Source of the DNA: Limisphaerales bacterium
Lineage (GTDB): Bacteria > Verrucomicrobiota > Verrucomicrobiia > Limisphaerales > UBA11358
Assembly: GCA_043776855.1 (NCBI GenBank)
Contig: JAYVQV010000074.1
Coordinates: forward strand, 1-37,212
Direction: 5' to 3'
DNA: 37,212 bases
The notes under the pieces are model-generated. The model was not told the origin of the DNA. It saw nothing but the letters and a program-made list of their open reading frames with translations, and made no database searches. This document shows, in pieces, positions 5,401 to 35,966 of this stretch; positions within the stretch are counted from its first letter, which is position 1; every line of letters begins with the position of its first letter. The position numbers and the translations under genes were made by a program.

Positions 5401-5416
5401 GATTTCAAAAACGAGT

Positions 5417-8172
<2,756 letters not shown>

Positions 8173-8270
8173 TTTCTTTTTTCCCGTTTCCGGCCTCCTG
8201 CATGAGCCGCGCATCCGGCACGACCTCGCTTGGGTCGAGCTGCTCTGGTAGTATGACGCGCCGAAATAGA

Positions 8271-10538: not shown

Positions 10539-10573
10539 GGATAGAATCAGACTAGCCGAAGCCGGTGGTCGGG

Positions 10574-10614
10574 CGAGGGTGAAATTTGCGTCGCGAACGA
10601 GTCATTCTACATCG
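10574..10614 (-). promoter_or_regulatory. Conserved direct-repeat box, minus-oriented copy. Candidate AraC/XylR-type operator upstream of the 755-aa gene.
   Basis: The minus strand reads gaTGTAGaatgactcgttcgcgaCGCAAATTTCACCCTCG. The second core plus tail matches the other copies closely. The first core, 21 nt upstream, is degenerate (TGTAG). Confidence 0.35.
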
Positions 10615-10656
10615 AATCCCCTCGGCAAGCGATATCGTTCAAGAAAAACAATGGTG

Positions 10657-10697
10657 CGACGCAAAAATGCACGCGCCCGACGAAATTCAACCCTTTG
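10657..10697 (+). promoter_or_regulatory. Conserved direct-repeat box. Candidate AraC/XylR-type operator upstream of lyase paralog 1.
   Basis: Reads cgaCGCAAaaatgcacgcgcccgaCGAAAttcaaccctttg. The cores start at 10660 and 10681, exactly 21 nt apart. Confidence 0.5.
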
Positions 10698-10788
10698 GCC
10701 CTTCGGCGGATTCAGCTAGCTTAAGCTCACTAGCCAAATTAAAAACAACGGAATTTATTTTTGCCGCCGTTTGACACACTAAAATATT

Positions 10789-13371
10789 ATGAAACAAATT
10801 TCACTGGTTACCGCGTTAAGCGTGCTGTTCGCCGCGCAATTCAGCTCGTTGCTGGCGCAAGTGCCGCGCCACCTTCCCAACGAGTTGGACGCCGAAGCGG
10901 TTTTGAACGGCGCGTATCCGTGGCCCACGTCGCCGAAAGTTGAGGTCAACTACGACACCAACGGTTTTGCCTTCGACCGACTGACCCTGGTTCCGCCCCC
11001 CGGCGTGCATCCGCGCATTTTAATCAGCCCGAGGGAATTGCCGGATTTACGCCGTCGCGTCGCGGACACGGAAATGGGTCGCGCGCTTCTGAAAAATTTG
11101 CGGTCCCGCGTGAACGATGCCATCAAGCAGCCCGGCGCGTGGGGAGCGACATTTTACGATGCGCTCGCCGCCGGGAATTTGGCGGATGCAAAAAAACTGC
11201 TCGCGGAAAAAAACGGCAAGCCGCCTCAGATCGGGCATTACCAGCCGTTCATCGAGGCGTTTGCGATGGAAGCGCTGGATGCCTTGATTTCAAAAGACGA
11301 ACAGCGTGGCCGAAAAGTTGGCGCGGCCCTCGCAAGTTATGCCGCGATTGCCGAGCCGGCGATTGACAGCGCGCTCGCCCAGCCGCTCGGTGACGATGTT
11401 TGGCGCGTGAAATTGAACGGCCCGACCACTGGCGACTGGAGCAGCGATCAGGGCGCGCGTGACCTTGTCGGTTACCACATTCTTGGCTACGCCTACGACT
11501 TTGCCTACAACTTCATGACCGAGGCGCAGCGTTCCCAAGTGCGCAGCGTCATCTCCAAAGTGACGCGCGGCGAACTGTGGATGGGCGCGCGGCTGCCGCA
11601 TCATTTTCGCAACTGGAACTGGTGCGCCGTCGGCTTGAGCCAGCCGCTGCTCGCGCTGGCAATTGAAGGCGAAGACGGCTACGACCCGCGCGTTTTCAAA
11701 ATGGGCGTGGACATCGCGCGCGATTATTTCAGCTTCGGCATTTCGGAAAATGGTTTTTCCACCGAGGCCGTCGGCTACACGCAGTTCGGTTTAGTCTGGG
11801 CAAATCCCTTCGTGGTCGCCGCCGCGCGGCGCGGGGAAAATCTACTCACGCAAAACCATCTTCGCGCGATGATTGAGTGGTATTTGCATTCAATGGAACC
11901 AGCGGCGCTCGCGCTCGGCCAGGTTTCGACGAACGCGGATTTTGAGCAGCTTCAGCGCAGCCTGCCGCAGTTTTGGACGAGTCACGGCGATGGCGGCGAC
12001 GAAGGCCCGGCCATCTGGACGATGGCGCTGTGGAAATATTTTTATCCGCACGACGCGAAAATTGACCTGCTTTGGCGCGTGGTGGTGAACAAGAATCGTG
12101 GCCAGCCTTTCACGGGCAGTTTTCATTTGATCGAGCCTTTGCTGTGGGCTGATGAAGCGCCCATCACGCTGAAACCGGACGCGGCGGAGAAATTGAACCT
12201 GCCGCGCGCACTCTTTGATGCCACGCGCAGTTCGTTCATCGCACACAGCGGCTGGAACACCAATTCGGCAATGTTGCAGTTCGAGTGCCGCACGGATTCA
12301 GTCGGCTCTAGCCACGAACACGCGGATCGCGGCGCGTTCACGTTTTCCGCGCTGGGACGGCAGTGGGCGAGGGATAATTTCCGTTCCGTCGAGACGCGTC
12401 ATCATAATTCCATTTTGATTGACGGCAGGGGACAAGGTTTTTGGCCGGGGCCGGGCAAATGGCTTGGGCTGGATGACAAAGGCTGGGCGCTCGTTGCCGC
12501 CTGCGACGCAAAAGATTGTTACGATTGGTGGTGGCCCAAGGAAATTATAGCGGAAGACCCGAAAAATTTTGAGCGTTTCAAATTTTCGCGCTGGCAAAGC
12601 AATTTGGCCGACGCCGAGCAGTTTCAAATTGATTACGCCAGTCAGACGCCGGAGCAAGACCCGCGCCCGTCAGTCGTCGCGCATTGGAAAGGATTTACCG
12701 CGCACGATCCGCGCCTGTGGGACGAGGATGCCTGGCCCGTGCGTTTGACGAACAATCCAGTGCAGCGCGCCTTTCGCACGATTGCCTTCGTGCGCGAGCC
12801 GCATCCGTATTTGCTGGTCGTGGATGACATCCAGAAGGATTCGCAAGCACGGCTTTACGAATGGCTGATGCAAATGGGCATGAACACTGCCGTCGCGCGC
12901 ATGGCTGGTGGCGAAATCATTTTGTGCGACGCCACCGTGCCGCTGGACGAAAACGGCTTGCCTAAACTGCGCAAGGGCGACCGCGAATTGCTCGTGCGCG
13001 TGCTCGACTGCGGTGTGCCGGCCAATGCGCACGATTTTCAATCCAAGCCGTCATTTCGATTGGAAACGTTCGAGCGCAAAGACACCCTCGTGCCGGAAGC
13101 GCCCAGCACGGCGCTGTCCGGTTCGCGCACGTTTGGATTGGACAAACGACTGGTGATTGCGAGCCGGGCGGTTGCGCCGAATTTTAAAATCATTTTGTGG
13201 CCGATGCGCGAGGGTGAACCTTTGCCGGATACGATTTGGAACGAGTCGAAAACGGAACTGACCGTGATGGGGCAGGGCGCGACGGATAAAATATTGTTCC
13301 GCACTGAAAACGGTGGCCGCACACACGTTGCGTTGGAACGAACCGGTAAAGCAAAAGCGACCATTCCCTGA
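10789..13371 (+). CDS. Heparinase II/III-like polysaccharide lyase family protein (paralog 1), secreted
   Basis: 860 aa. Signal-like start MKQISLVTALSVLFAAQFSSLLAQ. Supporting motifs are GVHPRILISPRELPDLRRR and SSHEHADRGAFTFSALGRQWARD...HHNSILIDGRGQ (the Hepar_II_III hallmark). The C-terminal block is NPVQRAFRTIAFVREPHPYLLVVDDIQKD. Confidence 0.75.
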   Translation: MKQISLVTALSVLFAAQFSSLLAQVPRHLPNELDAEAVLNGAYPWPTSPKVEVNYDTNGFAFDRLTLVPPPGVHPRILISPRELPDLRRRVADTEMGRALLKNLRSRVNDAIKQPGAWGATFYDALAAGNLADAKKLLAEKNGKPPQIGHYQPFIEAFAMEALDALISKDEQRGRKVGAALASYAAIAEPAIDSALAQPLGDDVWRVKLNGPTTGDWSSDQGARDLVGYHILGYAYDFAYNFMTEAQRSQVRSVISKVTRGELWMGARLPHHFRNWNWCAVGLSQPLLALAIEGEDGYDPRVFKMGVDIARDYFSFGISENGFSTEAVGYTQFGLVWANPFVVAAARRGENLLTQNHLRAMIEWYLHSMEPAALALGQVSTNADFEQLQRSLPQFWTSHGDGGDEGPAIWTMALWKYFYPHDAKIDLLWRVVVNKNRGQPFTGSFHLIEPLLWADEAPITLKPDAAEKLNLPRALFDATRSSFIAHSGWNTNSAMLQFECRTDSVGSSHEHADRGAFTFSALGRQWARDNFRSVETRHHNSILIDGRGQGFWPGPGKWLGLDDKGWALVAACDAKDCYDWWWPKEIIAEDPKNFERFKFSRWQSNLADAEQFQIDYASQTPEQDPRPSVVAHWKGFTAHDPRLWDEDAWPVRLTNNPVQRAFRTIAFVREPHPYLLVVDDIQKDSQARLYEWLMQMGMNTAVARMAGGEIILCDATVPLDENGLPKLRKGDRELLVRVLDCGVPANAHDFQSKPSFRLETFERKDTLVPEAPSTALSGSRTFGLDKRLVIASRAVAPNFKIILWPMREGEPLPDTIWNESKTELTVMGQGATDKILFRTENGGRTHVALERTGKAKATIP

Positions 13372-13372
13372 C

Positions 13373-13413
13373 TGACGCAAATCCGTCCCGCACCGATGCA
13401 ACATAGCCCCTAG
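13373..13413 (+). promoter_or_regulatory. Conserved direct-repeat box. Candidate operator upstream of the pseudopilin-led gene chain.
   Basis: Reads tgaCGCAAatccgtcccgcaccgaTGCAAcatagcccctag. The cores start at 13376 and 13397, 21 nt apart. The box begins 2 nt after the stop codon of the preceding gene. Confidence 0.5.
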
Positions 13414-13491
13414 TTACAAAACCATTTTGTAGCCAGCTTATTTCAACCACCTGCCACTCGCTCTAAAAGCCGTGTCTCTTGGTCTAAAAAA

Positions 13492-14292
13492 ATGAAAACC
13501 CTTTCCGCGCCAACTAAAAAGCCGTTCGCCGCCTTTACGTTGATTGAACTGCTGGTGGTCATCGCCATCATCGCCATTCTCGCCGCCATGCTGCTGCCGG
13601 CGCTTTCCCGCGCGAAGCAGACCGCACTGCGCACCCGCTGCCTGAACAACGTCCGCCAGGCCGGTCTGGCGACTACGATGTATGCCATGGATGCCCGGGA
13701 CGCTTTGCCCTACGGTTATGTGCTGGCGGGTGAAGCGTCGCAGAATGCCAATCCCTCCACGGGTAATTGCTGGACAAATTTTACCAGTTCGCTCGGCTTA
13801 AAAGACCAGGCCTCCATCCAAAAATTTTACTCGTGTCCCGCCGCCTCGTCGCAACTTTCGCAGGGAAACAACCCGCGAACTTACGCCGCCAACGCCAACA
13901 TCAACTGGTATGATACTGCGGCGGGAACTTATGCCTTTACCAAAATCACCACGCCCAGAAAGCCGGTCATCACCATGCTCGTTGTGGACGCTGGTGCCGC
14001 CAACAATGGAACGACCTTGCCCATCACGAGCTATCGCACCATGGCCGAGGGCATGAACTACGCGCCGCTCTTCGCGCACTTCGGCCAGACGTTTCAGAAA
14101 ATGGTTTCCAATCCGGGCAATAATTATTTCAACTACGCGAACGGCTCGGCGGTGTTTGCCTTTTTCGACGGCCATGCGGACGTCCGCAAACCGGATCTCA
14201 CCATGGGCAAAACCGATTCCGCCCCGGTGCTGCCGTCGCAAACGCCCGGTCTCGCGACCGATTTCTACAAGCAATTCTGGAACGGCCAATGA
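13492..14292 (+). CDS. Pseudopilin-like protein with a prepilin-type N-terminal cleavage/methylation domain
   Basis: The start [43 protein letters not shown] is the class III signal / N-methylation motif. A C-terminal FFDGHADV motif is typical of the expanded Verrucomicrobia/Planctomycetes pseudopilin-like family. Confidence 0.8.
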
Positions 14293-15233
14293 AATCATTT
14301 ACGCGCCAGTTTTTCTCCAGCCTCACGCTCGCCGCCGCGCTGCCGTTCGGGACATTCCTCCATTCCCCTGCGCCAAACGAACTGATTTACAAGCACGCTG
14401 CACACGGCGATTTGAAATTGTTTTGCTTTGCACCGGCCACAAATTTCGTGGCGAAAAAATCCCCGGCAATTCTCTGGATTCACGGCGGTGGCTGGACGGG
14501 CGGAACCTGTGAATCTTTTTTTCCGCTCGCGCGCTACACCGCCACGCGCGGGGCGGTGAGTTTCGTCGTGGAATACCGGCTGGCAAAAACCAACGGCACG
14601 GTGACCGTGGCGGCTTGCGTCGCGGACTGCAAATCGGCGGTGCGTTATCTTCGCAGTCATTCAGATGAACTGGGCATTGATCCAAACCGCATCGCCGTCA
14701 TCGGCGAATCGGCGGGCGGCCATCTTGCTGGGTGCGTCGGCACGCTCAATGGTTTCAACGATCCGGCGGACGACTTGAAAATCAGCGCGCGGCCTGACGC
14801 GCTCGTGCTTTACAATCCGCTCACGGATTTTACGCAGTCGAGTTTTCTAAAACTGTTCATGAACGGCGAGGCGGCGGGTGACAAACTGAAATGGGCGCGC
14901 GAACTTTCACCGCTGTTTACCATTCGCTCCAATTTGCCGCCGACGATCTGCATCCACGGCCTCGCGGACACGGTAGTTTCGCCGGACAACTCGCGGCTGT
15001 TCGCCGAAGCGATGCACAAAGCCGGCAACCGCTGCGATCTTGTGCTGCTGCCAGAGACGCCGCACGCGTTTCTGATTCCAAATTACAAATGCTCCGAGGC
15101 GACCGTTGTGAACGCGCTGCTCATCGCGGACAAATTCCTGACCACGCTCGGCTGGTTTTCCGGCGAACCAAACTTGGTCGTTTCCGAGCCGCCGTCGTGG
15201 ACACCCAAATGGCCGTTATCAAAATCCAAATGA
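14289..15233 (+). CDS. Secreted alpha/beta-hydrolase esterase (Abhydrolase_3 / hormone-sensitive-lipase-like; likely carbohydrate esterase)
   Basis: Oxyanion motif WIHGGGW. Nucleophile elbow GESAGGH. C-terminal His in PETPHAF. Signal-like N-terminus. Its ATG overlaps the preceding stop codon (ATGA at 14289-14292). Confidence 0.75.
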
Positions 15234-18200
15234 AAAAATTTACTCAAATAATTTTGTTGGCGTCAGCCTTTTCAGGAAGCGGTTTGGCGCAAACCAACTG
15301 GTCGCCCGTGCCGCCGCAAAATCAGGGGCTGCCTTACACGCGCAGCGCGCAAAAATTTGCCGGCGAAAAAATCAAAGACGCCGTTGCCGTGTTTGCCGGC
15401 AGCCGCTATGCCTGGGTTCACGGTTTCAAAGTCCGGCTGGACGACGCGAACTGGCGCGACGAGGCGGTGCTGCGTGACGGAAAATTATTTGTGCCCGCCG
15501 CGTTTGCTGGTGTTTTGGATTTGGCGGAAATCAAACCATCGCCTGCGCCAAGCTATCTGGCTGACCGTTGGGTTTATTCGTTGGAAATTCCAAAATCAAA
15601 AGCTGCGACGATTCAAATTGACGGCAAAGACTACATCGCGCTGGCGGACGAGGCGCAGAAACACGGCTTCAAAGTCTTCCAAAACGAGCGCGGCCTGCTG
15701 CTCATCGGCAAAATGGAAATTTTGTTTTCTGAATCCGAATCCAATTTACTCGACAGCGTGATCGCGCTTTTCGACACGCCGGAAAAATTCGCCGATCCCG
15801 ACATCGCGACGCGCTGGATTCCGGCGTTGACGCGGCAGGGCGCTTGGACGAATCACGTCAAGGTCACGCCGGAGCAATTGAACATTTACAGCGGCCCAGA
15901 AACGAAATGGCCAACCGCGCCGAAGTCGGCCTACGATTTCTCCGGCTTCAACCAAAAGCTCCTCGGCTCGAAAGTCCCGCCGCCGGGTGTTTATCCACGC
16001 GTGTTATTCAGCCCAGAGGACGTGCCGATGCTCGCGGCGCGGGTAAAAAAATCCAAGCTCGGCCAGAAGTCGCTCATCGAGATGCAGTATTTATTCGGGC
16101 AGAGTTTTTGGAACCCGAACACGAGTGACGGCAAAGTTTTTGAGAAACTCGCCAGCAACGATCTGGCCGGACTCGATTGGCCGGACGACGTGCGGCCCGA
16201 ACGGGTCGCCACGTTCAACACCGCGCAGCAGTTCAAGGGCGAGAAGCCGGGCATTTATAATTCCCACGTCGCGTATCTGCCGGAATGCCTGAATGACATC
16301 GCGTTGTATTGTTTGTTGACCGGCGATGATCTTCACGGCCAGCAAGTCGCCACCGCGATTGCCAATTATTACAAACTGCGCGAGCCGTTGATTGACGCGT
16401 GGAACGCGATGAGCGATTCCGAATTCGGCGACGAGCAAAACAACGCCAACGGCTCGGTGACCGGCTGGCGCGGAATGCACGGCCTCGTCGCGCACATGAA
16501 TCTCGGCCTCGCGCTCGACTTCGGCGGCAAATGGATGACCGCCGAGCAAAAGGAAACCATGCGCCGCGTCATTGCCAAGGCGACTTACGGCCGCCGCGCT
16601 TACGGCGAGGACAGCACGGTGCGTTTCCGCGACGTGAACTGGGTGGGTTGGGATTTGCCGCAATTTCTCGCGCTGACGGCCATCGAGGGACTCGAAGGTT
16701 TTGACCGCGAAGCCTGGGAACAAGGGCGCGACACGGTGCGCGCGTTCTGCGATTTCGGCATTGACGATGCCGGCGTGGTGTTCGAGAGCAACGGCAAAAC
16801 GCCCGGCAGTTTACAATTCATCACGCTCTCGCTGGTGGCCTCGGCGCGGCGCGGCGAAAATTATTTCGGCCATCCGCACCTGCGCAAATTGCTGGAAGCG
16901 CAAACGCAAATGACTTCGCCCAACGGCCGCGTGACGGTGAACTGCGGGACGCAATACGAACCCTTCAGCCGGCAGTTTGTATCACCACAGTTGACGGATG
17001 AATTGAAATCGTTTTTCCCGCGCGAGCGCATCGCGGATTATTTGCTGACGAAGATCACCGCTTCGCCGGCACAGGCGGCGAACGAATACACACGCGGCTG
17101 GGCGATCCAAAATTTCGACGCGGCGAAATATCGCGAGCAGGTGAAAAAAAATCAGCGCCTGCGTCTGCCCAGTCCGACTTATCCCGGCTTTGTGCCCGGC
17201 GTGCTTTACGATTCAGATTTTGCGTCGGCGACGCGCGCAGATTTGAATTTGCCGCTGGATTTTAATGCGCCGGTTCACGGCGTCTTCTCCAGTTACAGCG
17301 ACCGCACGACGAATGCCGCGTGGATGAATATCATGGTTCGTCCCGACCATTATCTCGGCGCGGGGCATCACCACGCGGACGCGGGGATGTTCCATTTTTC
17401 CGCGCGCGGCGTGGACTGGTTCACCGAGTCGCCGTTCACGCAGACTTACGACGGCAAATTTCACAATCTCGTTTTGGTGGACGGCGAATCCGAGGCGACG
17501 ACGCTGCCGGACGACAAAATTCTCGGCTGGAATGCAGCGGCGAATTATCTCGGCGCGGTGGAAAATAAATTTGCCGCGAGCGCGGCCGCGGATTTGACCT
17601 CCGCCTATTCGTGGCGGTGGCTGTGCCAGTCGCCGCCGACGTGGAGCGAACATCTCGTTAGCCTCGGCTGGGAAATTGAGCCGTCGCCGCGCGTGCTGGA
17701 AATTTTTGCGGGCACGGCGCGCTACAAAATGCGCCCGTGGTGGGCGAACTACGACTACGCGAATTTTATGCCGACCTGCCGCGCGCCGTTCAACCCGATG
17801 CAACGCGTCTTCCGCACCGTCGGCCTCGTGCGCGGCCAGCATCCTTACGGATTCATCGTGGATGACTTGAAAAAAGATGACGCGCCACACTTGTATCAAT
17901 GGGCGGCGATGCTGAACGGCGGCGTGTGGCCAGCGGAAGTTTCCGGTCTCGCAAAAAATCAAATCGCACTGGCGTTCCGCGCCGGCGATCCCGATGTCAA
18001 TTCTCCCGTCGCCAAAGCGTCAATCAAACCGCAGGCCGGCGAACCGTTGCTCATAGTGACCGCACTCGGCATGGACGAAAGCGGCGATCCGGCAACGCCA
18101 CTGTTTGAAGTCGCGCGGCTCGAAGGACCGAAAGACCACAACGGCAAACCGCAATTTTACGAGCGGCTGGTCATCAACCGTCACGCGGACGCGGCGAATT

Positions 18201-19275: not shown

Positions 19276-21080
19276 AGCCACCGTTACAAGCCGCCCGTCT
19301 CATCGGCGACAAACTCATCCGCGACACGCCCTTTGCCTACCGGCTGGAGGTCGCGCCGAACAACCGTGCGTTTGACCGGATGCACTTCGTGGATTTTGGG
19401 GGCACGTTCGGTCAGGGCAAACCGGCGGTGGCATTTGCGTGGACGCGGTTGACGGCGGCGAAGGCGGGCAAAATCAAAATCCAGATCGAACACAGCGACG
19501 GCTGCCAAATCTGGTTGAACGGAAAAAATGTTTATGTGCGCGCGGGCAAACGGAAATTGAATCTGCGGCGCGACGAGCGGAGCTTTGAAATGTCGCACGC
19601 GTTCACGGTGGATTTGAAAGCGGGCGCGAACACGCTGCTCCTCAAATCCGAGACGCGCGGCGGCGAGTGGCGCGTGTATCTCCAGCCGCCAAACGCGAAA
19701 GGCGCGGTGGTGAACGGCGCGTCGCATCCGGAAATCGGTTTGCGCGGCGTGCCGAATGTGGATGATAAAGTCGCCGAGCTGACGAACTGGCTGGTCATCG
19801 GGCCGTTCGCGGGCGGACGCGGCGCGCTGGAAAAAATTCTGCCGCTGGAAAAAGAATTCGCTTTTGGGAAAATGTATTCCGGCTTGGACGCGCCGGTGAC
19901 ATGGACGATTCCGAAAATTGAAATCCTCGGCAACCTGATTGACCCGCTGCCGTGGGGCACGAACTACCACTGGAATTATCACAACGGCGGCACGGCGTGG
20001 GCGATGCAGTTGCTGGCGGCGGCGACCGGCGAAAAAAAATACGCGGACTACGCGAACCGGTTTTGTGATTTTCATCTCGAAGGCATTCCGTTTGTCGAGC
20101 ATCAGGTAAAAACTTTGAACGCGGTCGAGTCGGCGAATCACTGGATCATTGAGACACCGTTGCTGGATTTCACGCTCGCGCCGTCGCTGCCGTTTATTCA
20201 ACGGCTGCGCACGGAGAAAAAATTTCCGAAGCGAGCGGCTTACGAAAAATGGATCGCGCGGATGCTGCACTACGCGCGGCACGAACAGATTCGCCTGCCG
20301 GGCAGCGGCATCTTCACACGCACGACGCCGGTAAATTTTACGACGTGGGTGGACGATATGTTCATGGGCATCCCGTTTCTCGTGCAGGCGGCGTTGCTGG
20401 CGAAAGATAAAAAATCACACACCGAATTTCTGAATGACGCGGCGAGCCAGACACTCGCGTTCAACGAACAGGTCTGGGATGCGGACGCGCAGCTTTATAT
20501 GCACGCGCGTTATTCTGGGAATCCCGTGAAACTCCCACACTGGGCGCGCTGCAATGGCTGGGCGATTTGGGCGATGAGTTGCGTGCTGCAACATCTACCG
20601 GCGACGCACCCGAAACGCGCGGCGATTTTGAAACATTTCCAGACGCACGCGGAATCGTTGCGGAAATTACAGGCGAACGACGGCTTCTGGTTCAACGTGC
20701 TGGATCGCAAAGATTCGGCAAAGGAAGTTTCCGGCACGGCAATTTTTGTTATGGCCTTTGCGCGCGGCATCCAACAGGGCTGGCTGGCGCGGGAAAATTT
20801 TTTGGAAGCCGTGCGCCTTGGCTGGTCGGCATTGGATTCGCGCATGGAGGCCGACGGCACAGTGCACGACATTTGCGCGGGGACAATGTGCACGGAAGAC
20901 GAGGAGTATTACGTCACGCGGCCGTTTTACGATAACGACACGCATGGGTTGTTTGCGGCGCTGTTCGCGGCGCTGGAAGTCAGCCGCCTGGGAATGGCGA
21001 CGGAGTTGGACGAACGCAGTGTGAAATCTACTGCGCCGGACGCACCGCACAAAACTTCGCTGGCTTTTCCGCCGGCTTGA
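19272..21080 (+). CDS. GH105/GH88-type unsaturated rhamnogalacturonyl/glucuronyl hydrolase with an extra ~230-aa N-terminal beta-sandwich-like region and no signal peptide
   Basis: The track ORF 19128..21080 is trimmed to the ATG at 19272 (ATGA overlap at 19272-19275). WVDDMFMGIPFLVQAALL and WARCNGWAIWAM are Glyco_hydro_88-family hallmarks. The N-terminal part (GCQIWLNGKNVYV...LKAGANTLLLKSE) looks like a sugar-binding beta-sandwich. Confidence 0.75.
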   Translation: MKPPLQAARLIGDKLIRDTPFAYRLEVAPNNRAFDRMHFVDFGGTFGQGKPAVAFAWTRLTAAKAGKIKIQIEHSDGCQIWLNGKNVYVRAGKRKLNLRRDERSFEMSHAFTVDLKAGANTLLLKSETRGGEWRVYLQPPNAKGAVVNGASHPEIGLRGVPNVDDKVAELTNWLVIGPFAGGRGALEKILPLEKEFAFGKMYSGLDAPVTWTIPKIEILGNLIDPLPWGTNYHWNYHNGGTAWAMQLLAAATGEKKYADYANRFCDFHLEGIPFVEHQVKTLNAVESANHWIIETPLLDFTLAPSLPFIQRLRTEKKFPKRAAYEKWIARMLHYARHEQIRLPGSGIFTRTTPVNFTTWVDDMFMGIPFLVQAALLAKDKKSHTEFLNDAASQTLAFNEQVWDADAQLYMHARYSGNPVKLPHWARCNGWAIWAMSCVLQHLPATHPKRAAILKHFQTHAESLRKLQANDGFWFNVLDRKDSAKEVSGTAIFVMAFARGIQQGWLARENFLEAVRLGWSALDSRMEADGTVHDICAGTMCTEDEEYYVTRPFYDNDTHGLFAALFAALEVSRLGMATELDERSVKSTAPDAPHKTSLAFPPA

Positions 21081-21095
21081 AGCAATTTAAGCGTT

Positions 21096-22277
21096 GTGAA
21101 ACCCAAGCAAAAACGCATCGCGCTGATTGGCCTGCCGGTTTTCCAGTCCATCAACAACCTGGCTTGTGTGGCCATCGCGCGGCACGCGGAGGAAACGGGG
21201 CGCTGGCGGTTTGTGTTTTCGGCGGAGGCGTCGGTGGCGGCGTTCAAGTTTCTGCGCACGCTGGATTGCGACGGCGCGATTGTCCGCATCACGTCGGAGG
21301 CGATGAAGCGTGAGGCAAAGAAAATAAAATTTCCCATCGTCAATGTCTCCTCCTGGCTCGCGGAACCGGGCGTGCCGTCGGTGCGGCATGATTACCGGGC
21401 GCTGGGGCGGATGGGCGCGGAGCATCTGCTGGAAAAAGGTTTTCGCCGCATCGGCTGCGTGATTGTGCCGGGCGGATATTTTATTCAGGAACGGTTCACC
21501 GCCTTCCAGGAAACGCTAAAGGCACATGGGTTGAAGCCGCAATTATTTCACCTGCGGACGACGCAGCCCACCCTGCCCCAGCCCATCGCCGCCGAGGAGC
21601 GGCGGCGTTTCGGCGACTGGCTGCGGACGTTGCAGAAGCCGGCCGCCGTGGCGTTGATGGACGACTGGGACGCGCCGACCCTGATGGCGGTGTGCCGCGA
21701 GGTCGGTTTGGAAATTCCACGCGACCTCGTGATGATCACGACCTGCAATCACAGCGAAGTATTGCCGCAATGCCCGATCCCATTGAGCGCGGCGCTGGAA
21801 AATCACGAACTGCTTGGTCGTCTCGCCGTGGCGTGCCTCGACGATTTGATGTCCGGCAAACGTCTGGAAAATTTCACCGTCACCGTGCCGCCGCTCGGAG
21901 TGGCGGCACGCGCTTCGACCGCGACGATGGCTATTGAAGATCGCGAGGTGGCGCACGCGGTGGAGTTCATCCGCGCGCACGGCTTCGAGCCGATTAACAT
22001 TTCGGATGTGTTGACGTGCGTAAATATTTCCCGCGTGACGCTGGAGCGCCGCTTCCGGCAGGTCATCGGCGACACGCCGCACGAATACCTCATCAAGCAC
22101 CGCATCCGCCGCGCGCAGGAGTTGCTGTTACAGGATCCGCCTCCTAGTTTGCAGGCCATCGCGAAGCAGTCTGGACTGCCGGATCGGCGCCGCTTGAACC
22201 AGGTCTTTCGCCGCGCGACGGGCAAAGCTCCGTCCGTCTGGCGCGAATGGGCGCTGAAGCAGCGTGTGAAACTTTGA
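21096..22277 (+). CDS. XylR-type hybrid transcriptional regulator: a LacI/periplasmic-binding-protein-like sensor domain plus a C-terminal AraC-family HTH
   Basis: GTG start at 21096, 15 nt after the GH105 stop. The N-terminus KRIALIGLPVFQ...GRWRF..., then RIGCVIVPGG, fits a sugar-binding fold. The C-terminus ISDVLTCVNISRVTLERRFRQVIGDTPHEYLIKHRIRRAQELLL...LQAIAKQSGLPDRRRLNQVFRRATGKAPSVWR is a double AraC HTH. Confidence 0.8.
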   Translation: MKPKQKRIALIGLPVFQSINNLACVAIARHAEETGRWRFVFSAEASVAAFKFLRTLDCDGAIVRITSEAMKREAKKIKFPIVNVSSWLAEPGVPSVRHDYRALGRMGAEHLLEKGFRRIGCVIVPGGYFIQERFTAFQETLKAHGLKPQLFHLRTTQPTLPQPIAAEERRRFGDWLRTLQKPAAVALMDDWDAPTLMAVCREVGLEIPRDLVMITTCNHSEVLPQCPIPLSAALENHELLGRLAVACLDDLMSGKRLENFTVTVPPLGVAARASTATMAIEDREVAHAVEFIRAHGFEPINISDVLTCVNISRVTLERRFRQVIGDTPHEYLIKHRIRRAQELLLQDPPPSLQAIAKQSGLPDRRRLNQVFRRATGKAPSVWREWALKQRVKL

Positions 22278-22315
22278 CGCAATTCAGTATGCCGTTGCCG
22301 CAACTTCACCCCTCG
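22275..22315 (+). promoter_or_regulatory. Conserved direct-repeat box. Candidate operator upstream of the LamG-lyase gene.
   Basis: Reads tgaCGCAAttcagtatgccgttgcCGCAActtcacccctcg. The cores start at 22278 and 22299, 21 nt apart. The leading TGA is the regulator's own stop codon. Confidence 0.5.
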
Positions 22316-22358
22316 TGAATTTTCGTTTTAATGTGAGTTTAAGGTTATCCTAAAAATT

Positions 22359-25300
22359 ATGCGCCGATTGACGACTTTAATTTTGTTTCTGGCCGCCGCT
22401 GTAAAAGTTTTTACCGCGCCGGCGATTCTATTTCAGATGAATCAAACGCCCGTGACCGGCAACAACGCCATCACGAACGCGGCGACCACGAACAGCGCTT
22501 ACTGGGGCACGCTGAAAGGTTCCGGCGCGCTGCCCGTGCTCACGAACGGCGCGAGCGCGAACACCGGCAGCGCGTGGCAGTTCAACGCTGGCTACTACCT
22601 TGGCGTCGGGCCGGACGCGGTGACACGCAGTCTGGGCGACATCACGAACACCACTGGCTTGAGCGTGGCGTTCTGGGTGAAATACACGAACAGCGCCACG
22701 TTCGTCCGCGTCTGCGGCTTGGGCGGCAGTGGCGAGACGTTTGATTTTTCCACGCAAAGCGGCGGCAAGATGATGTTCGCCGCCGGCTATCAGCCGACCG
22801 GCACGCGCTGGGTGAGCCTGACGCCGAACAATGTCGTGTTCGACGGCCAGTGGCATCATGTCGTGGGCGCGGTGGATTTTCGGCGGACTGTGAACAACGC
22901 GGTAGTGTTTGTGGACGGCGTGCCGGTGTTGACCAGTTCGGCGACAATTTTCAACTCCATCACTAATTCCGGCACGTTGAACATTGGTGCGCGCGGCAGT
23001 GGCAGTGCGACGGCGTGCGCGATTGACCAGTTCATCGTTTACACGAACGCCCTGCAGGCCGCCGAAGTCGCGCAGCTTTTTGCGCTGGGCAACGTGACGA
23101 ATTACGCGCCGATCATTTCGGTGAGCGCCGCGCAAACTTCACTGGCCTGGACGAACGGCGCGGCGAACATTTCAACCAGTTTGGCAGCGCTCATCAGCGA
23201 CGACGGCCTGCCGAATCCGCCGGGACGCGTGACGAACCTGTGGACGCAGACGAGTGGGCCGACGAATTCCTTTGCGACGTTCGTCTCGCCGACCAACGTC
23301 ACGACGACGGTGACGTTCACCAACACCGGCCTCTACATTCTGCGCTGCACGACGCGGGATGGCGTCTTGAGCAATTGGGATGAGGCGACCATCAACGTTT
23401 TTTCCAACGCCGCACCGGTGGTTGCTGCTTGGGCATCAGTGACAACTTTGCTTTCAACAAATCCGGCGACGATTTCGCTCGCGGGCTGGGCCCAGGACGA
23501 CGGCATGCCGAATCCGCCCGCGCTGACCACGAGCCTGTGGACGCGCGTGAGCAGTCCCGGCAACGTCGCGGTGACATTCGCAAATCCGGCGAGCGTCAAC
23601 ACCAGCGTCACCATCCCGACCAACACCGGCACTTACGTCCTGCGGCTCACGGCGAGCGACAGCCTGTTGAGCGGCTCGGCAGATGTGACGATCAACGTGG
23701 TGACCAATCTCGCGCCGGTTTTAAGCGCATGGACAACCGCCCCCATCGCGCAATGGCCGTCGAATCAATTCACGTTGCAGGCGATGGTGGCTGACGATGG
23801 CCGTCCGAATCCACCCGGCGTGGTGACGAGTTTGTGGAGCAAGGTGAGCGGGTCGGGCGCGGTGACGTTCGGCAATGCAGCAGCGTTGAACACGACTGCT
23901 ACTTGCACGTTGCCGGGTGTTTATCAATTTCGGCTCGTGGCTTCGGACAGTGCTTTGTTCGCGACGAATGACGTCTGGGTGAACATTTGGTCAAACAGTC
24001 CCGGCTGCCTGCCGCCGCCTTCCGTGCGGACGCTCTCCGCCACGCCGCCGCCGTATGTGCATCCCAGAATTTTCTTCACGGACGCGGATCGCCCGGCGAT
24101 GCAGGTGCGCGCGACGAACGACACGATTGTGCAGGAGGGAATTTATCAGGCGACCTATGGTTTGTTTGCCGTGGTCTCGAACACGATTGACAACGCCGCC
24201 AGCACGGTCGGCCAGACGTTCGCGCGGCTTGCAGCCGGCGACACGACGGTGGATACGATGGCGCTGGTGCAGCAGCAATCCACCGGCGAATTTTTGAATG
24301 GCGACGTTGGCTCCGGACTTTACGGGCCGATGGCTTCGGCGTGTTACCTCGCATGGCTCTGGCCGACGAACACCGCGCGCTTGCAGCAGCTCGCCACGGC
24401 GGTCGCCACGGCGGCGACCTGCCATCAGAGCTGGTATGTGAATCTTCCCGACAGCAGCAAGGGCGAGCTGTCGCCGGACGTTTATGCGGACATCGGTTTT
24501 TGCTACGACCTCATGTATAACTGGATGTCGGCGTCACAGCGCGCGACGACGCGGAATTTTATTTCATTGATGACGACCAACCGCCACACGATTGGCTGGA
24601 ATGAAACGGATTATTCTGACTCGACCAACTGGCGCGACTTCCACGATCACCTCATCCTTGCGCAGCTTGCCATCGAGGGCGAAACGGGCTTCGACGCCGT
24701 GGCACTGGCGACGAATGCCGCGTCGCTGAAAACCTTCACGACGCGCTGGGGAATCACCGAGGGCGGTTTCAACCGCGAGGGCATGGGCTATTTCGCGATG
24801 GGCATGAGGAACGGCATCCTCGCCGCCACGGCGCTTTCGCGGCGCGGCGAAAATCTGCTCGTCACCACGCGCCTCTTCAATTCGCAGCAAGAAGCCTTCT
24901 ACGAACTCGCGCCGTGGGGCTATTACATCTACGACCATCAGGACGGCGGCGGCTGGGGCAACGGCGGCGGCGGTGGCATCGCCTACTACTATATGATGAA
25001 ATACCTCTTTGCGGACGACCCGATGGCAGACTGGATTTTTCAGAACAACCGCATCTATACGTCCAACAGCAGCCAGCCGCTGATCAAGGCCATCTTCGGT
25101 GCCGGCCCGCTGACGAACAACCCAAGCTTCGCCGTGGCCGGCCCGGCGAAAAATTTGTCGCTCGGAAAATTTGATCCGCAGCGTGGCTTCGGCGTGGCGC
25201 GCTCGGACTGGGGAACGAATGCCATGCAACTCGACTTCGATTGCCGCTTCGACACGATGACGCTGGGGCATCTGCATTCCGACCGGAACAATTTCACGCT

Positions 25301-26741
25301 GCTGTCGCATGGCCGCGTTTGGATTGGCGACCCCGGCTACCACCTGACGGAAAACGACGGACATGCCACCGTCTTGATTGACGGGCTTGGCCAGGCGGGA
25401 ACGGCGGGCAGCAATCATTGGCCGAGCTTGCCGGCGCACTTCGTGGAATTTCGTGGTCAGCCGATGGTGTCGCTGTTTTCCGGCGATGCCAAGCCGGCCT
25501 ACGATTATTCGTGGGACTGGGCGAATCTCGGCGGCGGTGCCGGCTACCAACCTTACACCAGTTACGTCGGCACCGGCCTCACAACGCCGTGGCGCTGGCT
25601 GGATTTGATGTATGCGCCGCCCAGTGATTTGACCGGCGCGAACGCGTGGATGACCAATTATGTCCGCGCGAATCCGGCAATGTTTAATCCGGTGCAACGC
25701 GCCTTCCGCACGGCGATGCTGCTGCGCGGCACGAAACCTTATGCGCTGATCGTGGACGACATTCAAAAGGACAACGCCACGCACACCTACGACTGGTCGG
25801 CGAACACCATCGGGCTGGATCCGCTTTCCGGCTTTGATGATCCGAATCCTGACGTGAGTTTTGTGTCCGCGCCGGATGCGACGAATGCCGTTCTCTATCA
25901 CGCCGCCGACACGAACGGCTGGCAGCCGCGCCTGCTCGTGCGCGTGCTGGACGCGAAGGGTGTGGCCGTGCCGGTGCAAATCGTGGATACGATCAACGCG
26001 CTCGGCAACCGCACTAAGCGCCTGGTCGTGTCGCGCAGCAACGTCGCCGCACCGGATTTCAAAATCCTCCTCTTCCCGCATCTTGCGGGCGAGGCATTGC
26101 CGGTGACAACGTGGAGCAACAACGTCGTCACCGTCACGATGGCGGACGGACAGATTGATCGAATTTATTTCAACACGAATGCCGATGGCCGCACGCGGAT
26201 TCAGACTTACCGCGTCGCCGGACAAAGCGCGGTGCCAAACATTCCCAGCCTCACCGCAACGGCGGGCGTGGCGCAAGTTTCGCTGAACTGGAACGCCTCA
26301 ACCGGCGCGACGGGCTACGTTCTCAAAGTTTCCACGAACAGCGGCGCGGTTTACTCCGTCGTCGCCAGCAATCTTTTAGCGACAGGTTTCACCAATGTAA
26401 ATTTGTTGCCCGGCACCAATTACACCTACGCCGTCGCCTCCATCAATACGAACGGCGTCAGCGAAGATTCCGCGCCAGCCAGCGCGGTTCCGCTGGCCGC
26501 CGTAACCACGCCACCAGTCATCTCGAACATTCAAATCATCGGTGGCAATCTCGTCATGACCGGCACGAACGGAACAGCGGGCGGAAACTGTTTTGTGCTG
26601 GCAACGACCAATCTCACGCAGCCCATGGCGAACTGGTCGTTCATCGCCACCAACCAATTCGGCGCGGGCGGCGCGGTGATTTTTACTAATCCGCTCAACC
26701 CCAATTCGCCGCAGACATTTTATCGGCTGCGGCTGCCCTGA
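22359..26741 (+). CDS. 1460-aa secreted multidomain protein: LamG/ConA-like domain, three Ig/PKD-like modules, heparinase II/III-like core (paralog 3), FN3 domain, and a C-terminal FYRL module
   Basis: Signal-like start MRRLTTLILFLAAAVKVFTA. LamG-like motifs are FDGQWHHVVGAVD, LNIGARG and IDQFIVY. Three tandem ~100-aa modules each contain DDG[LMR]PNPP....LW (nt 23103-23996). Lyase-core motifs are YVHPRIFFTDADRPAM, LGHLHSDRNNFTLLSHGRVWIGDPGY...HATVLIDGLGQ and NPVQRAFRTAMLLRGTKPYALIVDDIQKD. The FN3 domain lies at nt 26235-26498 (SLNWNASTGATGYVLKVS...YTYAVASINTNG). The last 80 aa end in QTFYRLRLP. Confidence 0.8.
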   Translation: MRRLTTLILFLAAAVKVFTAPAILFQMNQTPVTGNNAITNAATTNSAYWGTLKGSGALPVLTNGASANTGSAWQFNAGYYLGVGPDAVTRSLGDITNTTGLSVAFWVKYTNSATFVRVCGLGGSGETFDFSTQSGGKMMFAAGYQPTGTRWVSLTPNNVVFDGQWHHVVGAVDFRRTVNNAVVFVDGVPVLTSSATIFNSITNSGTLNIGARGSGSATACAIDQFIVYTNALQAAEVAQLFALGNVTNYAPIISVSAAQTSLAWTNGAANISTSLAALISDDGLPNPPGRVTNLWTQTSGPTNSFATFVSPTNVTTTVTFTNTGLYILRCTTRDGVLSNWDEATINVFSNAAPVVAAWASVTTLLSTNPATISLAGWAQDDGMPNPPALTTSLWTRVSSPGNVAVTFANPASVNTSVTIPTNTGTYVLRLTASDSLLSGSADVTINVVTNLAPVLSAWTTAPIAQWPSNQFTLQAMVADDGRPNPPGVVTSLWSKVSGSGAVTFGNAAALNTTATCTLPGVYQFRLVASDSALFATNDVWVNIWSNSPGCLPPPSVRTLSATPPPYVHPRIFFTDADRPAMQVRATNDTIVQEGIYQATYGLFAVVSNTIDNAASTVGQTFARLAAGDTTVDTMALVQQQSTGEFLNGDVGSGLYGPMASACYLAWLWPTNTARLQQLATAVATAATCHQSWYVNLPDSSKGELSPDVYADIGFCYDLMYNWMSASQRATTRNFISLMTTNRHTIGWNETDYSDSTNWRDFHDHLILAQLAIEGETGFDAVALATNAASLKTFTTRWGITEGGFNREGMGYFAMGMRNGILAATALSRRGENLLVTTRLFNSQQEAFYELAPWGYYIYDHQDGGGWGNGGGGGIAYYYMMKYLFADDPMADWIFQNNRIYTSNSSQPLIKAIFGAGPLTNNPSFAVAGPAKNLSLGKFDPQRGFGVARSDWGTNAMQLDFDCRFDTMTLGHLHSDRNNFTLLSHGRVWIGDPGYHLTENDGHATVLIDGLGQAGTAGSNHWPSLPAHFVEFRGQPMVSLFSGDAKPAYDYSWDWANLGGGAGYQPYTSYVGTGLTTPWRWLDLMYAPPSDLTGANAWMTNYVRANPAMFNPVQRAFRTAMLLRGTKPYALIVDDIQKDNATHTYDWSANTIGLDPLSGFDDPNPDVSFVSAPDATNAVLYHAADTNGWQPRLLVRVLDAKGVAVPVQIVDTINALGNRTKRLVVSRSNVAAPDFKILLFPHLAGEALPVTTWSNNVVTVTMADGQIDRIYFNTNADGRTRIQTYRVAGQSAVPNIPSLTATAGVAQVSLNWNASTGATGYVLKVSTNSGAVYSVVASNLLATGFTNVNLLPGTNYTYAVASINTNGVSEDSAPASAVPLAAVTTPPVISNIQIIGGNLVMTGTNGTAGGNCFVLATTNLTQPMANWSFIATNQFGAGGAVIFTNPLNPNSPQTFYRLRLP

Positions 26742-26746
26742 ACGCG

Positions 26747-26788
26747 TGACGCAAATAGACACGCCGTTGCCGCAAGTTTTGCCCTGTG
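26747..26788 (+). promoter_or_regulatory. Conserved direct-repeat box. Candidate operator upstream of the SASA-type esterase gene.
   Basis: Reads tgaCGCAAatagacacgccgttgcCGCAAgttttgccctgtg. The cores start at 26750 and 26771, 21 nt apart. The 13-nt spacer segment gccgttgccgcaa is identical to the copy at 22291-22303. Confidence 0.5.
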
Positions 26789-26818
26789 CGGGTGGAACTT
26801 TCTGGGCAATCTTTAACG

Positions 26819-28555
26819 ATGCTCCCTATTGAACCAAGTCAGCTTCGCCCGCGCTTCGTCGCGAACTTCGTTGGAAATATTTTCCTGAATTGCCTCGTCG
26901 CCGTTGTTCTGCTCACCGCCATTCCAGCGCAGGCGAAAGTCCGCCTGCCGGCCGTGTTTGCCGACCATTTGATTTTGCAGCGCGACGCGGCAGTTTCCAT
27001 CTGGGGCGGCGCGGAGGCCGGAGAAAAAGTCACGGTAAAATTTGCCGGCCAGGAAAAATCAGCGACGGTGGATGCGAGGGGAAAATGGCTCGTGAAGCTG
27101 GAGGCGCTCGCTGCCAGCGCGGAACCGCGTGAACTGACCATCACCGATGCGCACGCATCACGCATCACGCTTCACGATGTCTTGGTTGGCGATGTGTGGC
27201 TGGCCGGCGGGCAATCGAACATGGGCTTCCCGCTGAACTCCGCGCACAACGCCAAAGACGAACTGCCGAAAGCCGGCGATCCGCTGCTTCGTTTTTTCCG
27301 CGTGAAAACCAAAACTGCCGCCGAACCGCAGACGGATTGCACCGGCAGTTGGGAATTAAGCACGCCGGAGACGGCAAAAAACTTTTCGGGCGTTGCGTAT
27401 TTTTTTGCGCAGGAAATCCGCCGTAATCAAAAAGTGCCGGTAGCGGTTTTGCAAGCGCCATGGGGCGGCACAGATATTGAAACCTGGATCAGCCTCGACG
27501 GTTTGAAACAACATCCAATGCTCACGAAGCCGCTGGAGCGCTGGCAAAAAGCTGAGGCGGACTACGAGAAAATCAAGGCGAACCCAAGTCGGGTTGCCGA
27601 CTATGAAAAAGATTTGAAGCAGTGGCAGGCGGAAGTTGGGCCAGCTTACAGCGTGATTCTGAAAAAATACAACGACGACAAGTCGGCGGGAAAAGAAGTG
27701 GGCAAGAAGCCGGAACCGTCGCGCCCGGAACCGAGCAACCCCGACCCGATGGGTATGCCGAGCCCGTCGCGCCGCCCCAGCACGCCGACGGTAAATTTCA
27801 ACGGCATGATCGCGCCGCTCATGCCGTATGCGGTGCGGGGAATCATCTGGTATCAAGGCGAGAACAATGGTGGGCGCGGATTGGAGTATCGTGAATTGTT
27901 TCCGCGATTGATCCAAGACTGGCGCGAACAATGGACGAAAAACGGCGGCGCGGATTTTCCATTTCTGTTTGTGCAACTTCCCTGCAATGGCCCGGACACT
28001 ACGCCTGTCGCGGAAAGCGGCTGGCCGTGGCTGCGCGAGGCGCAGGCAATGACGCTCAAAGTGCCGCGCACGGGCATGGCGGTGACGATTGACGTGGGCG
28101 ACCCCAACAACGTGCATCCGGCGGACAAAATTGACGTGGGCAAACGGCTGGCACTCGTGGCGCGGAAAAAAGTTTATGGCGAGAATGTCGTCGCATCCGG
28201 GCCGATGTTTCAGGATCTCCAAATCAACGACGGAAAAGTGCGGGTGCGTTTTTCGGAAACGGATGGCGGCTTAATCGCTGGTCAGCAGCCGTGGCTGGCA
28301 GCGGGCGTAAAACCGTTTCCGAAAGACAAGCTGATCGGATTTTTCATCGCGGGCGAGGATAAGAAATGGATCGAAGCCGAGGCGAAAATTGACGGCGACA
28401 GTGTCATCGTCTCCCACGCCGACGTGCTGAAGCCGGTGGCGGTGCGCTACGGTTGGGCGAATTCGCCGCGCTGTAATCTCTACAACCAGTCCGGCCTGCC
28501 CGCCGCGCCGTTCCGCACAGATGACTGGCCGCCGGGTGCGCCTAATGGCAAGTGA
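26819..28555 (+). CDS. Sialate O-acetylesterase-like (SASA/DUF303) carbohydrate esterase, exported
   Basis: LPAVFADHLILQRDAAVSIWGGAEAGEKVTVKF...ARGKWLVKL followed by GDVWLAGGQSNMGFPL is the SASA-family signature. I prefer the ATG at 26819 over the track's GTG at 26786, because the GTG lies inside the conserved box. There is a hydrophobic N-terminal segment, FLNCLVAVVLLTAIPAQA. Confidence 0.75.
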   Translation: MLPIEPSQLRPRFVANFVGNIFLNCLVAVVLLTAIPAQAKVRLPAVFADHLILQRDAAVSIWGGAEAGEKVTVKFAGQEKSATVDARGKWLVKLEALAASAEPRELTITDAHASRITLHDVLVGDVWLAGGQSNMGFPLNSAHNAKDELPKAGDPLLRFFRVKTKTAAEPQTDCTGSWELSTPETAKNFSGVAYFFAQEIRRNQKVPVAVLQAPWGGTDIETWISLDGLKQHPMLTKPLERWQKAEADYEKIKANPSRVADYEKDLKQWQAEVGPAYSVILKKYNDDKSAGKEVGKKPEPSRPEPSNPDPMGMPSPSRRPSTPTVNFNGMIAPLMPYAVRGIIWYQGENNGGRGLEYRELFPRLIQDWREQWTKNGGADFPFLFVQLPCNGPDTTPVAESGWPWLREAQAMTLKVPRTGMAVTIDVGDPNNVHPADKIDVGKRLALVARKKVYGENVVASGPMFQDLQINDGKVRVRFSETDGGLIAGQQPWLAAGVKPFPKDKLIGFFIAGEDKKWIEAEAKIDGDSVIVSHADVLKPVAVRYGWANSPRCNLYNQSGLPAAPFRTDDWPPGAPNGK

Positions 28556-28562
28556 ATGGGCC

Positions 28563-28604
28563 GTGTCGCAAAATAGCCCGCGCGCGGCGCAAAATGCACC
28601 CTCG
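28563..28604 (+). promoter_or_regulatory. Conserved direct-repeat box. Candidate operator upstream of the giant beta-strand-repeat protein gene.
   Basis: Reads gtgtCGCAAaatagcccgcgcgcggCGCAAaatgcaccctcg. The cores start at 28567 and 28588, 21 nt apart. The tail CACCCTCG is identical to the minus-oriented copy at 10574-10581. Confidence 0.5.
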
Positions 28605-28711
28605 GCTGGCTTCATAAGATGGATTAGATTCTGCATATCTCAAAGCAACCCTTGAACACTGGGCATCACGGCCAGTGAGTGCCTGTGTCTTTGGTTAAAC
28701 CTAGAAAATTT

Positions 28712-34661: not shown

Positions 34662-34696
34662 TGGTCTGAACCCGTAGTGGTGGACACCTTGGAGGG
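34662..34696 (+). repeat. IS3-family left terminal inverted repeat
   Basis: TGGTCTGAACCCGTAGTGGTGGACACCTTGGAGGG. It differs from the right-end repeat only at position 7. Confidence 0.85.
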
Positions 34697-34719
34697 TGGG
34701 CGCGAAACTGAACGCACCC

Positions 34720-35931: not shown

Positions 35932-35966
35932 CCCTCCAAGGTGTCCACCACTACGGGTTAAGACCA
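35932..35966 (-). repeat. IS3-family right terminal inverted repeat
   Basis: The reverse complement is TGGTCTTAACCCGTAGTGGTGGACACCTTGGAGGG. Confidence 0.85.

Follow-up and report, generated by a model that had tools for sequence, protein, structure and literature searches.

The window examined here is the whole of a 37,212-nt stretch of contig JAYVQV010000074.1, from a Limisphaerales bacterium of the phylum Verrucomicrobiota, and it carries a glycan-degradation island whose minus- and plus-strand gene blocks were placed with Pfam (Table 1). Six copies of a 38-bp box, built from two direct repeats, together precede every operon of this island, which also encodes a XylR-type regulator; judging from the sequence, the box is very probably the operator of that regulator. 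To our knowledge, Verrucomicrobiota play a major part in the breakdown of complex polysaccharides in lakes, soils, oceans, and guts, possess no SusC/D-type loci, offer few genetic tools, and have almost no known cis-regulatory code. The contigs most similar to the window come from lake metagenomes, and homologues of the regulator carry the source annotation Pedosphaera sp. or Verrucomicrobiota.

The box and its six copies in the window

The box consists of two units of the form TGACGCAA-N6-8-CCCC(T), in direct orientation and with a period of 21 bp. In pooled orthologous sites the repeat unit reads T-G-A-C-G-C-A-A-(A/T), with a run of C 6-8 nt later, and is longer than the five-base core described in the original prediction, which had been made from the sequence of the window alone; the second C-run closes with a nearly invariant T. 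Counts over 26 and over 35 sites reveal the conserved positions that the two units have in common at an offset of 21 nt (G4/G25, G7/G28, A9/A30, A10/A31, and C17-19/C38-40), and this offset, already claimed for the window, is found in all six of its boxes and in 67 Verrucomicrobial sites. The original prediction had also described two cores with a C-rich tail after the second one. The cores stand, but the tail does not belong to the second core only: it is the second half of unit 2, and each unit is bipartite with a C-block of its own, that of unit 1 being more degenerate in the window. The half-sites are direct rather than inverted and share one consensus, and they are bipartite and recur with a period of ~21 bp, as required of a tandem operator of the AraC/XylS type. 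A pair of conserved blocks that are separated by about one helical turn and recur every second turn is the layout to be expected for two tandem AraC-type double helix-turn-helix (HTH) domains.

All six copies were found in the sequence where they had been placed. A weight matrix trained solely on 35 non-redundant sites from other Verrucomicrobial genomes (hereafter the external matrix, with a cut-off of 5 bits) returned these six boxes as its sole matches in the whole window, with scores from 16.2 to 42.6 bits (Table 1); in 200 Markov-simulated sequences of 37 kb, by comparison, the best score averaged -4.8 and reached a maximum of 9.3. The three best boxes were recovered independently in a direct-repeat search as a 39-nt family (D5), and a loose regular expression for both cores matched the window 11 times, in five cases within short intergenic gaps. 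When a matrix was built from the six window sites instead, an additional 21-bit match appeared at 20913 (minus strand), within the GH88 gene; scoring less than 5 bits with the external matrix, it was rejected as overfitting or chance. The lone TGACGCAA reported at 10462-10469 is indeed without a partner; it lies within the 755-aa coding region and obtains no score with the external matrix.

With gene starts called on an identical Logan contig, the distances from the second core to the start codon are 48, 52, and 60 nt for three boxes and 95, 108, and 124 nt for the other three, in agreement with the earlier figures, and box 4 does begin on the stop codon of the regulator gene (TGA, 22275-22277). 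When the six boxes are aligned together with their flanks, similarity ends at the box edges, except for one invariant T further downstream. An Rfam scan of the window matched no family, and the upstream region of the IS3-family element at the right edge of the island carries no box.

Table 1. Genes, boxes, and putative -10 hexamers of the island, in order along the window (scores obtained with the external matrix)
Feature	Position	Strand	Remarks
GH95-like/DUF5703 protein	848-2995	minus	Pfam
Pectate-lyase-like beta-helix protein	3004-5490	minus	Pfam
Truncated GH43 remnant (putative)	5417-5764	minus	Pfam
Alpha-L-rhamnosidase	5761-8436	minus	Pfam
755-aa protein	8271-10538	minus	ATG 10538; no Pfam domain; heads leftward block 848-10538
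Putative -10, TAGTCT	10549-10554	minus	after box 2; 11 nt from hexamer end to ATG
Box 2, GATGTAGAATGACTCGTTCGCGACGCAAATTTCACCCT	10576-10613	minus	upstream of 755-aa gene; unit 1 degenerate; 16.2 bits
Box 1, GACGCAAAAATGCACGCGCCCGACGAAATTCAACCCTT	10658-10695	plus	upstream of 860-aa gene; 20.4 bits
Putative -10, TAGCTT	10717-10722	plus	22-23 nt after box 1
860-aa lyase-like protein	10789-13371	plus	ATG 10789; no Pfam domain
Box 3	13374-13411	plus	upstream of pseudopilin-led operon 13492-22277; 42.6 bits
Prepilin-type N_methyl/DUF1559 protein (pseudopilin-like)	13492-14292	plus	heads operon 13492-22277
Esterase		plus	between pseudopilin-like gene and regulator gene
1032-aa protein	15284-18382	plus	between pseudopilin-like gene and regulator gene; no Pfam domain
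AP_endonuc_2 TIM-barrel protein		plus	between pseudopilin-like gene and regulator gene
GH88		plus	between pseudopilin-like gene and regulator gene
XylR-type regulator, 393 aa	21096-22277	plus	Peripla_BP_3 + AraC HTH_18; last gene of operon 13492-22277
Box 4	22276-22313	plus	upstream of 1460-aa LamG gene; 32.2 bits
LamG/PKD/fn3 protein, 1460 aa	22359-26741	plus	ATG 22359
Box 5	26748-26785	plus	upstream of SASA esterase gene; 20.0 bits
Putative -10, CAATCT	26807-26812	plus	after box 5; 7 nt from hexamer end to ATG
SASA esterase		plus	ATG 26819
Box 6	28565-28602	plus	upstream of giant PATR/Ig surface protein gene; 16.7 bits
Putative -10, TAGATT	28625-28630	plus	after box 6
Giant PATR/Ig surface protein, 1921 aa		plus	ATG 28712
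IS3-family element, two ORFs (HTH_Tnp_1 + rve)	34696-36040		directly after giant gene; right edge of island

Distribution of the box among genomes

A scan of 185,579 species genomes with the pattern GACGCAA-N14-GMYGCAA-N6-CCCT, which covers 11 of the 26 known sites and for which ~108 chance matches are expected over the whole collection, yielded at least 117 matches, given as blocks of 8 kb. Among the matches listed, 40 of 117 belong to Verrucomicrobiota and span subdivision 3/Limisphaerales, Akkermansiaceae, Luteolibacter, Verrucomicrobiaceae, and others; 35 of these 40 are evident real sites, conserved also at the positions that the pattern leaves free, and 35 of the 40 precede orthologues of island genes (the AP_endonuc_2-GH88-XylR operon, LamG-lyase-like genes, giant surface proteins, and pseudopilin-led operons). 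Those from other phyla, again among the matches listed, lie mostly inside coding sequence, and outside the island locus the box is almost confined to Verrucomicrobiota.

The genes downstream of 61 Verrucomicrobial sites outside the window are largely orthologues of island genes. They encode AP_endonuc_2 proteins and giant surface proteins at 12 sites each, LamG-lyase-like proteins at seven, N_methyl proteins at six (with two more recognizable by the motif GFTL(I/V)ELLVV), GH88 at three, and the 1032-aa and the 755-aa protein at one site each; for 19 of the 61 sites there was no match to island proteins, many of these genes encoding large proteins with signal-peptide-like N-termini. The link that had been proposed between the giant surface protein and the lyase and glycosidase genes finds support here, in that boxes elsewhere also precede orthologues of the giant protein and of other island genes. 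In Akkermansiaceae and Luteolibacter a recurrent order is found, namely box, AP_endonuc_2, GH88, regulator, a second box after the regulator stop, and a giant or LamG-like gene, which mirrors that of the window.

Nearly every intergenic gap in the window carries a box, and the window alone is therefore indecisive as to whether it is a generic promoter element or a dispersed repeat, similar to repetitive extragenic palindromes (REP) or to miniature inverted-repeat transposable elements (MITE). This explanation is scarcely credible and has already been largely refuted. No box occurs in loci L020-L022, including 21 kb of unrelated genes (glycosyltransferase, exosortase, hyp, and adk) that surround a 72%-identical homologue of the regulator in a related genome, and in Verrucomicrobial loci 60 of 65 starts of genes that are not homologous to island genes and have an upstream gap of at least 80 nt lack it (Fisher p = 5e-5), so that the box is not equally frequent before unrelated genes, the outcome that the original prediction had named as its refutation. 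Matches in other genomes go with orthologues of the genes of the island; furthermore, the box always has the orientation of the downstream gene, is a direct repeat rather than a palindrome, and, as mentioned above, has sharp edges and no Rfam counterpart.

Conservation in orthologous loci, another check named beforehand, gave a positive outcome: the box is kept beside regulators that are 56-92% identical, despite gene rearrangement. In loci whose regulators are 80-92% identical, gene order has changed and the boxes at operon starts are retained. Locus L017 has boxes before the divergent 755-aa orthologue and the N_methyl, LamG, and SASA genes; its SASA gene now stands after the giant gene and still has a box, which is also conserved in L003 and L004, and its counterpart of box 2, upstream of an 83%-identical orthologue of the 755-aa protein, has a well-formed unit 1. 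Boxes precede two N_methyl genes and a Pel9A-like giant protein in loci L018/L019, and sites near-identical to box 3 lie upstream of N_methyl orthologues in eight loci (L006, L017, L018, L034, L070, L095, L113, and L136). Homologues of the giant protein are preceded by boxes at 12 sites in other genomes, and related genomes have boxes on two or three contigs each. Alignment A1, which compares the spacer between the regulator and LamG genes in five genomes, is invariant at two copies of GACGCAA and at CCC and diverges in the flanks; the TGA of unit 1 doubles as the stop codon of the regulator gene in subdivision-3 orthologues (the window, L003, L005, and L017).

Beside regulators that are 56-62% identical, a drifted motif is found, TGYYGCAA...CCTCT (TGYYGCAAAWTG..CCCC / TGCGGCAAAATG.CCTCT; L011 11276, L015 1122, and L016 1115), which suggests, as far as the sequences go, that protein and site are co-evolving. 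It is also of note that in L020 a degenerate, 21-nt-phased relic (TGTCGCAAAATAATCGGGGT TGTCGCATCGG, 11198-11240) directly follows the stop codon of a 72%-identical regulator, in a neighbourhood without CAZyme genes, and faces a convergent gene.

Among the matches listed, 10 of the 40 Verrucomicrobial ones have an orthologue of the regulator (58-69% identity) within their 8-kb block, versus none of the 77 others. Box and regulator orthologues occur together over a wide phylogenetic range. The presence of box and regulator together in only 10 of 40 blocks could also be expected if the box were read by a factor encoded elsewhere, either an alternative or extracytoplasmic function (ECF) sigma factor, with unit 1 as the -35 and unit 2 as the -10 element, or another transcription factor, the XylR-type gene being a mere member of the regulon. 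The start-to-start spacing of 21 nt would also fit a -35/-10 pair, and a transcription start site (TSS) near CCCT would give ordinary 5' untranslated regions of 35-110 nt. A sigma factor is at odds, however, with two elements that are direct repeats of one sequence, where a -35 and a -10, read by different sigma domains, would differ, with the additional -10-like hexamer that lies at a fixed distance downstream (see below), and with the absence, by inspection, of a GG-N10-GC or GAAC/CGTC pattern. Against any factor encoded elsewhere, it is to be considered that the blocks span only 8 kb and that several are truncated contigs; the island has no sigma, anti-sigma, or other regulator gene, and the minimal conserved cluster, box-AP_endonuc_2-GH88-regulator-box, encodes no regulator besides the XylR-type one. 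Such a factor is thus very improbable, and assignment of the box to the XylR-type protein, as in the original prediction, is supported and is preferred in what follows.

Predicted promoter geometry and mode of action

Over 65 Verrucomicrobial sites, the mean log-odds of a -10 hexamer, about -7 in the background, climbs to -3.0 at 22-23 nt past the T of CCCT; this peak persists when the AP_endonuc_2 class is left out, and 27 chance matches in other phyla do not show it. The putative -10 hexamers of the window listed in Table 1 are good ones, at four of its promoters. The -35 region is poor, with no consensus -35 hexamers downstream of the boxes, and a consensus sigma-70 scan of 10400-29000 was uninformative, giving 7 matches versus 5.9 expected, none of them correctly placed. 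The promoter-proximal unit ends ~21 nt before the -10-like hexamer. With a 17-bp spacer, the box would begin at about -71 and end at about -34 relative to the predicted TSS, adjoining the weak -35 region; by analogy, this is the predicted geometry of class-II activation in the AraC family.

The TSS is predicted at about 48 nt past the start of the second core, which would render the SASA mRNA leaderless and leave leaders of ~4 nt for the 755-aa gene and ~12 nt for the LamG gene. In four genomes (26807-26821 in the window; L003, L004, and L017), 6-7 nt separate the -10-like hexamer from the SASA start codon downstream of it, and this conserved spacing likewise predicts a leaderless mRNA. A related observation concerns the AP_endonuc_2 genes that head the conserved operon in Akkermansiaceae and Luteolibacter (L087 626, L103, L106, L117, L118, and L078): they have an apparent conserved TTG start ~12-13 nt after the -10-like hexamer, and neither ATG nor GTG occurs in frame ahead of the conserved RLGIRAHD motif. 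Two promoter assignments for the box itself were discarded. If the nTGACG element is taken as the -35 of a sigma-70 promoter, the hexamer 17 nt downstream is, by inspection, GCCGCA-like and no -10, and in a sigma-54 reading of the reverse strand (TTGCG) transcription would point away from the downstream gene.

The regulator probably acts as an activator. In the mechanism that is proposed, two of its DNA-binding domains would lie one behind the other along the same face of the helix, one per 21-bp unit, and the ligand-bound protein would recruit RNA polymerase from a box next to the weak -35, in the manner of class-II activation of the AraC/XylR type. The six weak promoters together could then transcribe the whole island (848-34477). 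The position of box 3 upstream of the operon that ends in the regulator gene (13492-22277) implies autoregulation, which would be positive if the promoter at box 3 drives that operon as proposed. A plausible inducer would be an unsaturated uronate-containing oligosaccharide or a downstream product of it, a suggestion made because GH88, an unsaturated glucuronyl hydrolase, and AP_endonuc_2 form a conserved core with the regulator.

Binding of the box by the same protein could conversely serve repression, or dual regulation, by occlusion of an overlapping promoter. The TTGACG/TTGCCG of unit 2 resembles a -35 hexamer, and LacI-like sensor domains are typical of repressors. No -10-like signal follows 17 nt after this hexamer, however, and the sole position-specific -10 signal lies 22-23 nt past the end of the box; the poor -35 regions, and a sigma-70 scan with nothing above chance, are as expected of activator-dependent promoters, and both AraC-type domains and E. 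coli XylR activate from exactly such a position (PMC3561964). Repression is considered unlikely on these grounds, and activation is retained as the preferred mode of action.

Some points weigh against reading the box as the operator of this regulator. Two of the six window promoters have a poor -10-like hexamer, CCAGCT (13433) and GAGTTT (22335); several regulator homologues of 59-72% identity (L009, L012-L014, and L020) have no good box nearby; and the gene calls behind the two-by-two table of unrelated starts are crude. In addition, the pattern with which sites were collected was derived from the island locus and its orthologues, so that the external matrix is partly circular at its fixed positions. 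Three of the six window boxes (10660, 28567, and the minus-strand copy) fall outside the collecting pattern, and score 16-20 bits nonetheless; since they do not match this pattern, their scores are not circular.

Island content and comparison with known systems

Prepilin-type N_methyl/DUF1559 genes repeatedly head box-linked glycan-degradation operons, both in the window (13492-14292) and in other genomes (L034, L062, L095, L113, and L128). The 860-, 1032-, and 1460-aa proteins are mutually paralogous, with 26-27% identity and no Pfam catalytic domain; given the co-regulated GH88, they may represent a candidate polysaccharide-lyase family that is as yet undescribed. Searches against PDB and NCBIfam gave a faint, sub-threshold match to HepB-like heparinase as the only hit for the 860-aa protein and nothing for the 755-aa protein, and for both the label of lyase is a putative one. 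Inside the LamG gene, three direct repeats with a period of 297 nt (23199-23841) overlap K319L-like PKD matches (two stretches, the best at aa 466-542), and are probably tandem PKD-domain repeats. In the leftward block, the interval 5491-5760 was considered as a 270-nt promoter gap and rejected, as a truncated GH43 ORF fills it and no box lies there; in this 115-aa ORF the N-terminal 84 positions of the GH43 profile are fused with the final 30 of GH43_C2, and from its sequence it is best described as an internally deleted GH43 remnant within the leftward operon.

A search of the literature for the motif string and for XylR/AraC regulons of Verrucomicrobiota found no description of the box or of the regulon, and TGACGCAA gave primers only; this is apparently the first regulator-site pair of its type to be proposed for the phylum. 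A broader proposal, for and against which the evidence appears to us evenly balanced, is that box and XylR-type regulator make up a regulon retained in Verrucomicrobiota all the way from subdivision 3 (Pedosphaerales/Limisphaerales) to Akkermansiaceae/Luteolibacter, which would co-control giant PATR/Ig and pseudopilin-like proteins with a GH88-centred uronate-glycan pathway and the undescribed lyase-like family, with a readable cis-code and from several leaderless or near-leaderless mRNAs, as a functional counterpart of the polysaccharide utilization loci (PULs) of Bacteroidota. The mechanism itself is the classical XylR/AraC arrangement, with expected variation, and the gain lies in practice and annotation, not in concept. 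With a 38-bp box readable from sequence, regulon membership would become predictable in metagenome-assembled genomes, and the box ties the giant surface protein, the pseudopilin-like protein, and the 755-, 860-, and 1032-aa proteins to one glycan-degradation programme; together, box and regulator could provide a compact inducible promoter-regulator pair for Verrucomicrobiota.

Of known systems, the closest is E. coli XylR with its operators. The original prediction had recognized one XylR/AraC-type regulator in the island, and Pfam confirms a LacI-like sensor (Peripla_BP_3, residues 108-275) followed by a C-terminal AraC double HTH (HTH_18, 309-384) in 393 aa, the architecture of the XylR family, in which a LacI/GalR-type sensor and an AraC double HTH make up about 390 aa. 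Residues 51-384 align to E. coli XylR (PDB 4FE4) over its full length, with significant but weak similarity (E 6e-28, 101 bits). No xylA, xylB, or xylFGH is present in the window, and no NCBIfam equivalog cut-off is reached; since its proposed targets are not xylose genes and no such cut-off is reached, the protein is regarded as a XylR-like family member or paralogue and not as a xylose regulator. The operators of E. coli XylR (IA/IF) are ~37 bp long, consist of two direct repeats next to the -35 of weak sigma-70 promoters, and are arranged divergently between xylAB and xylFGH (PMC3561964). The earlier statement that direct repeats at 21 bp are an operator layout of the AraC/XylS family agrees with this arrangement (PMC3561964). 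The likeness to E. coli XylR (PDB 4FE4/4FE7) hence comprises protein architecture, full-length homology, an operator of 37-38 bp with two direct repeats, predicted for the box to adjoin the -35, and a divergent pair, boxes 1 and 2 of the window being of the same kind as the pair at xylAB/xylFGH. The repeats, in contrast, are unrelated (gaAa-a-a-AAT versus TGACGCAA-N-CCCC); the proposed targets are GH88, AP_endonuc_2, lyase-like, esterase, pseudopilin-like, and giant surface proteins instead of a xylose isomerase, kinase, and transporter; and the proposed regulon has at least six promoters, with the regulator gene lying within a target operon.

Class II sites of the AraC/XylS family, such as araI1-araI2 and those of RhaS, MelR, and XylS (Om), are tandem direct repeats with a 21-bp period, the layout named in the original prediction, and with the proximal unit at the -35, and each unit has two blocks about one helical turn apart that match the two HTHs of a monomer. 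The box shares the tandem repeat, the period, and the bipartite unit, and its proximal unit is predicted to adjoin the -35. The sensor differs, being a cupin in AraC and a LacI-like periplasmic-binding fold here; no CRP-like co-activator site was seen, though none was sought.

In Bacteroidota, PULs are regulated by hybrid two-component systems with AraC output, by SusR, and by ECF/anti-sigma pairs. The island resembles them in having a locus-encoded sensor-regulator with AraC-type output that would serve a multi-operon glycan locus. It differs in that its regulator is a cytoplasmic one-component protein rather than a membrane-spanning one, in the absence of SusC/SusD genes, and in the inclusion of pseudopilin-like (N_methyl/DUF1559) and giant PATR/Ig surface proteins in the proposed regulon.

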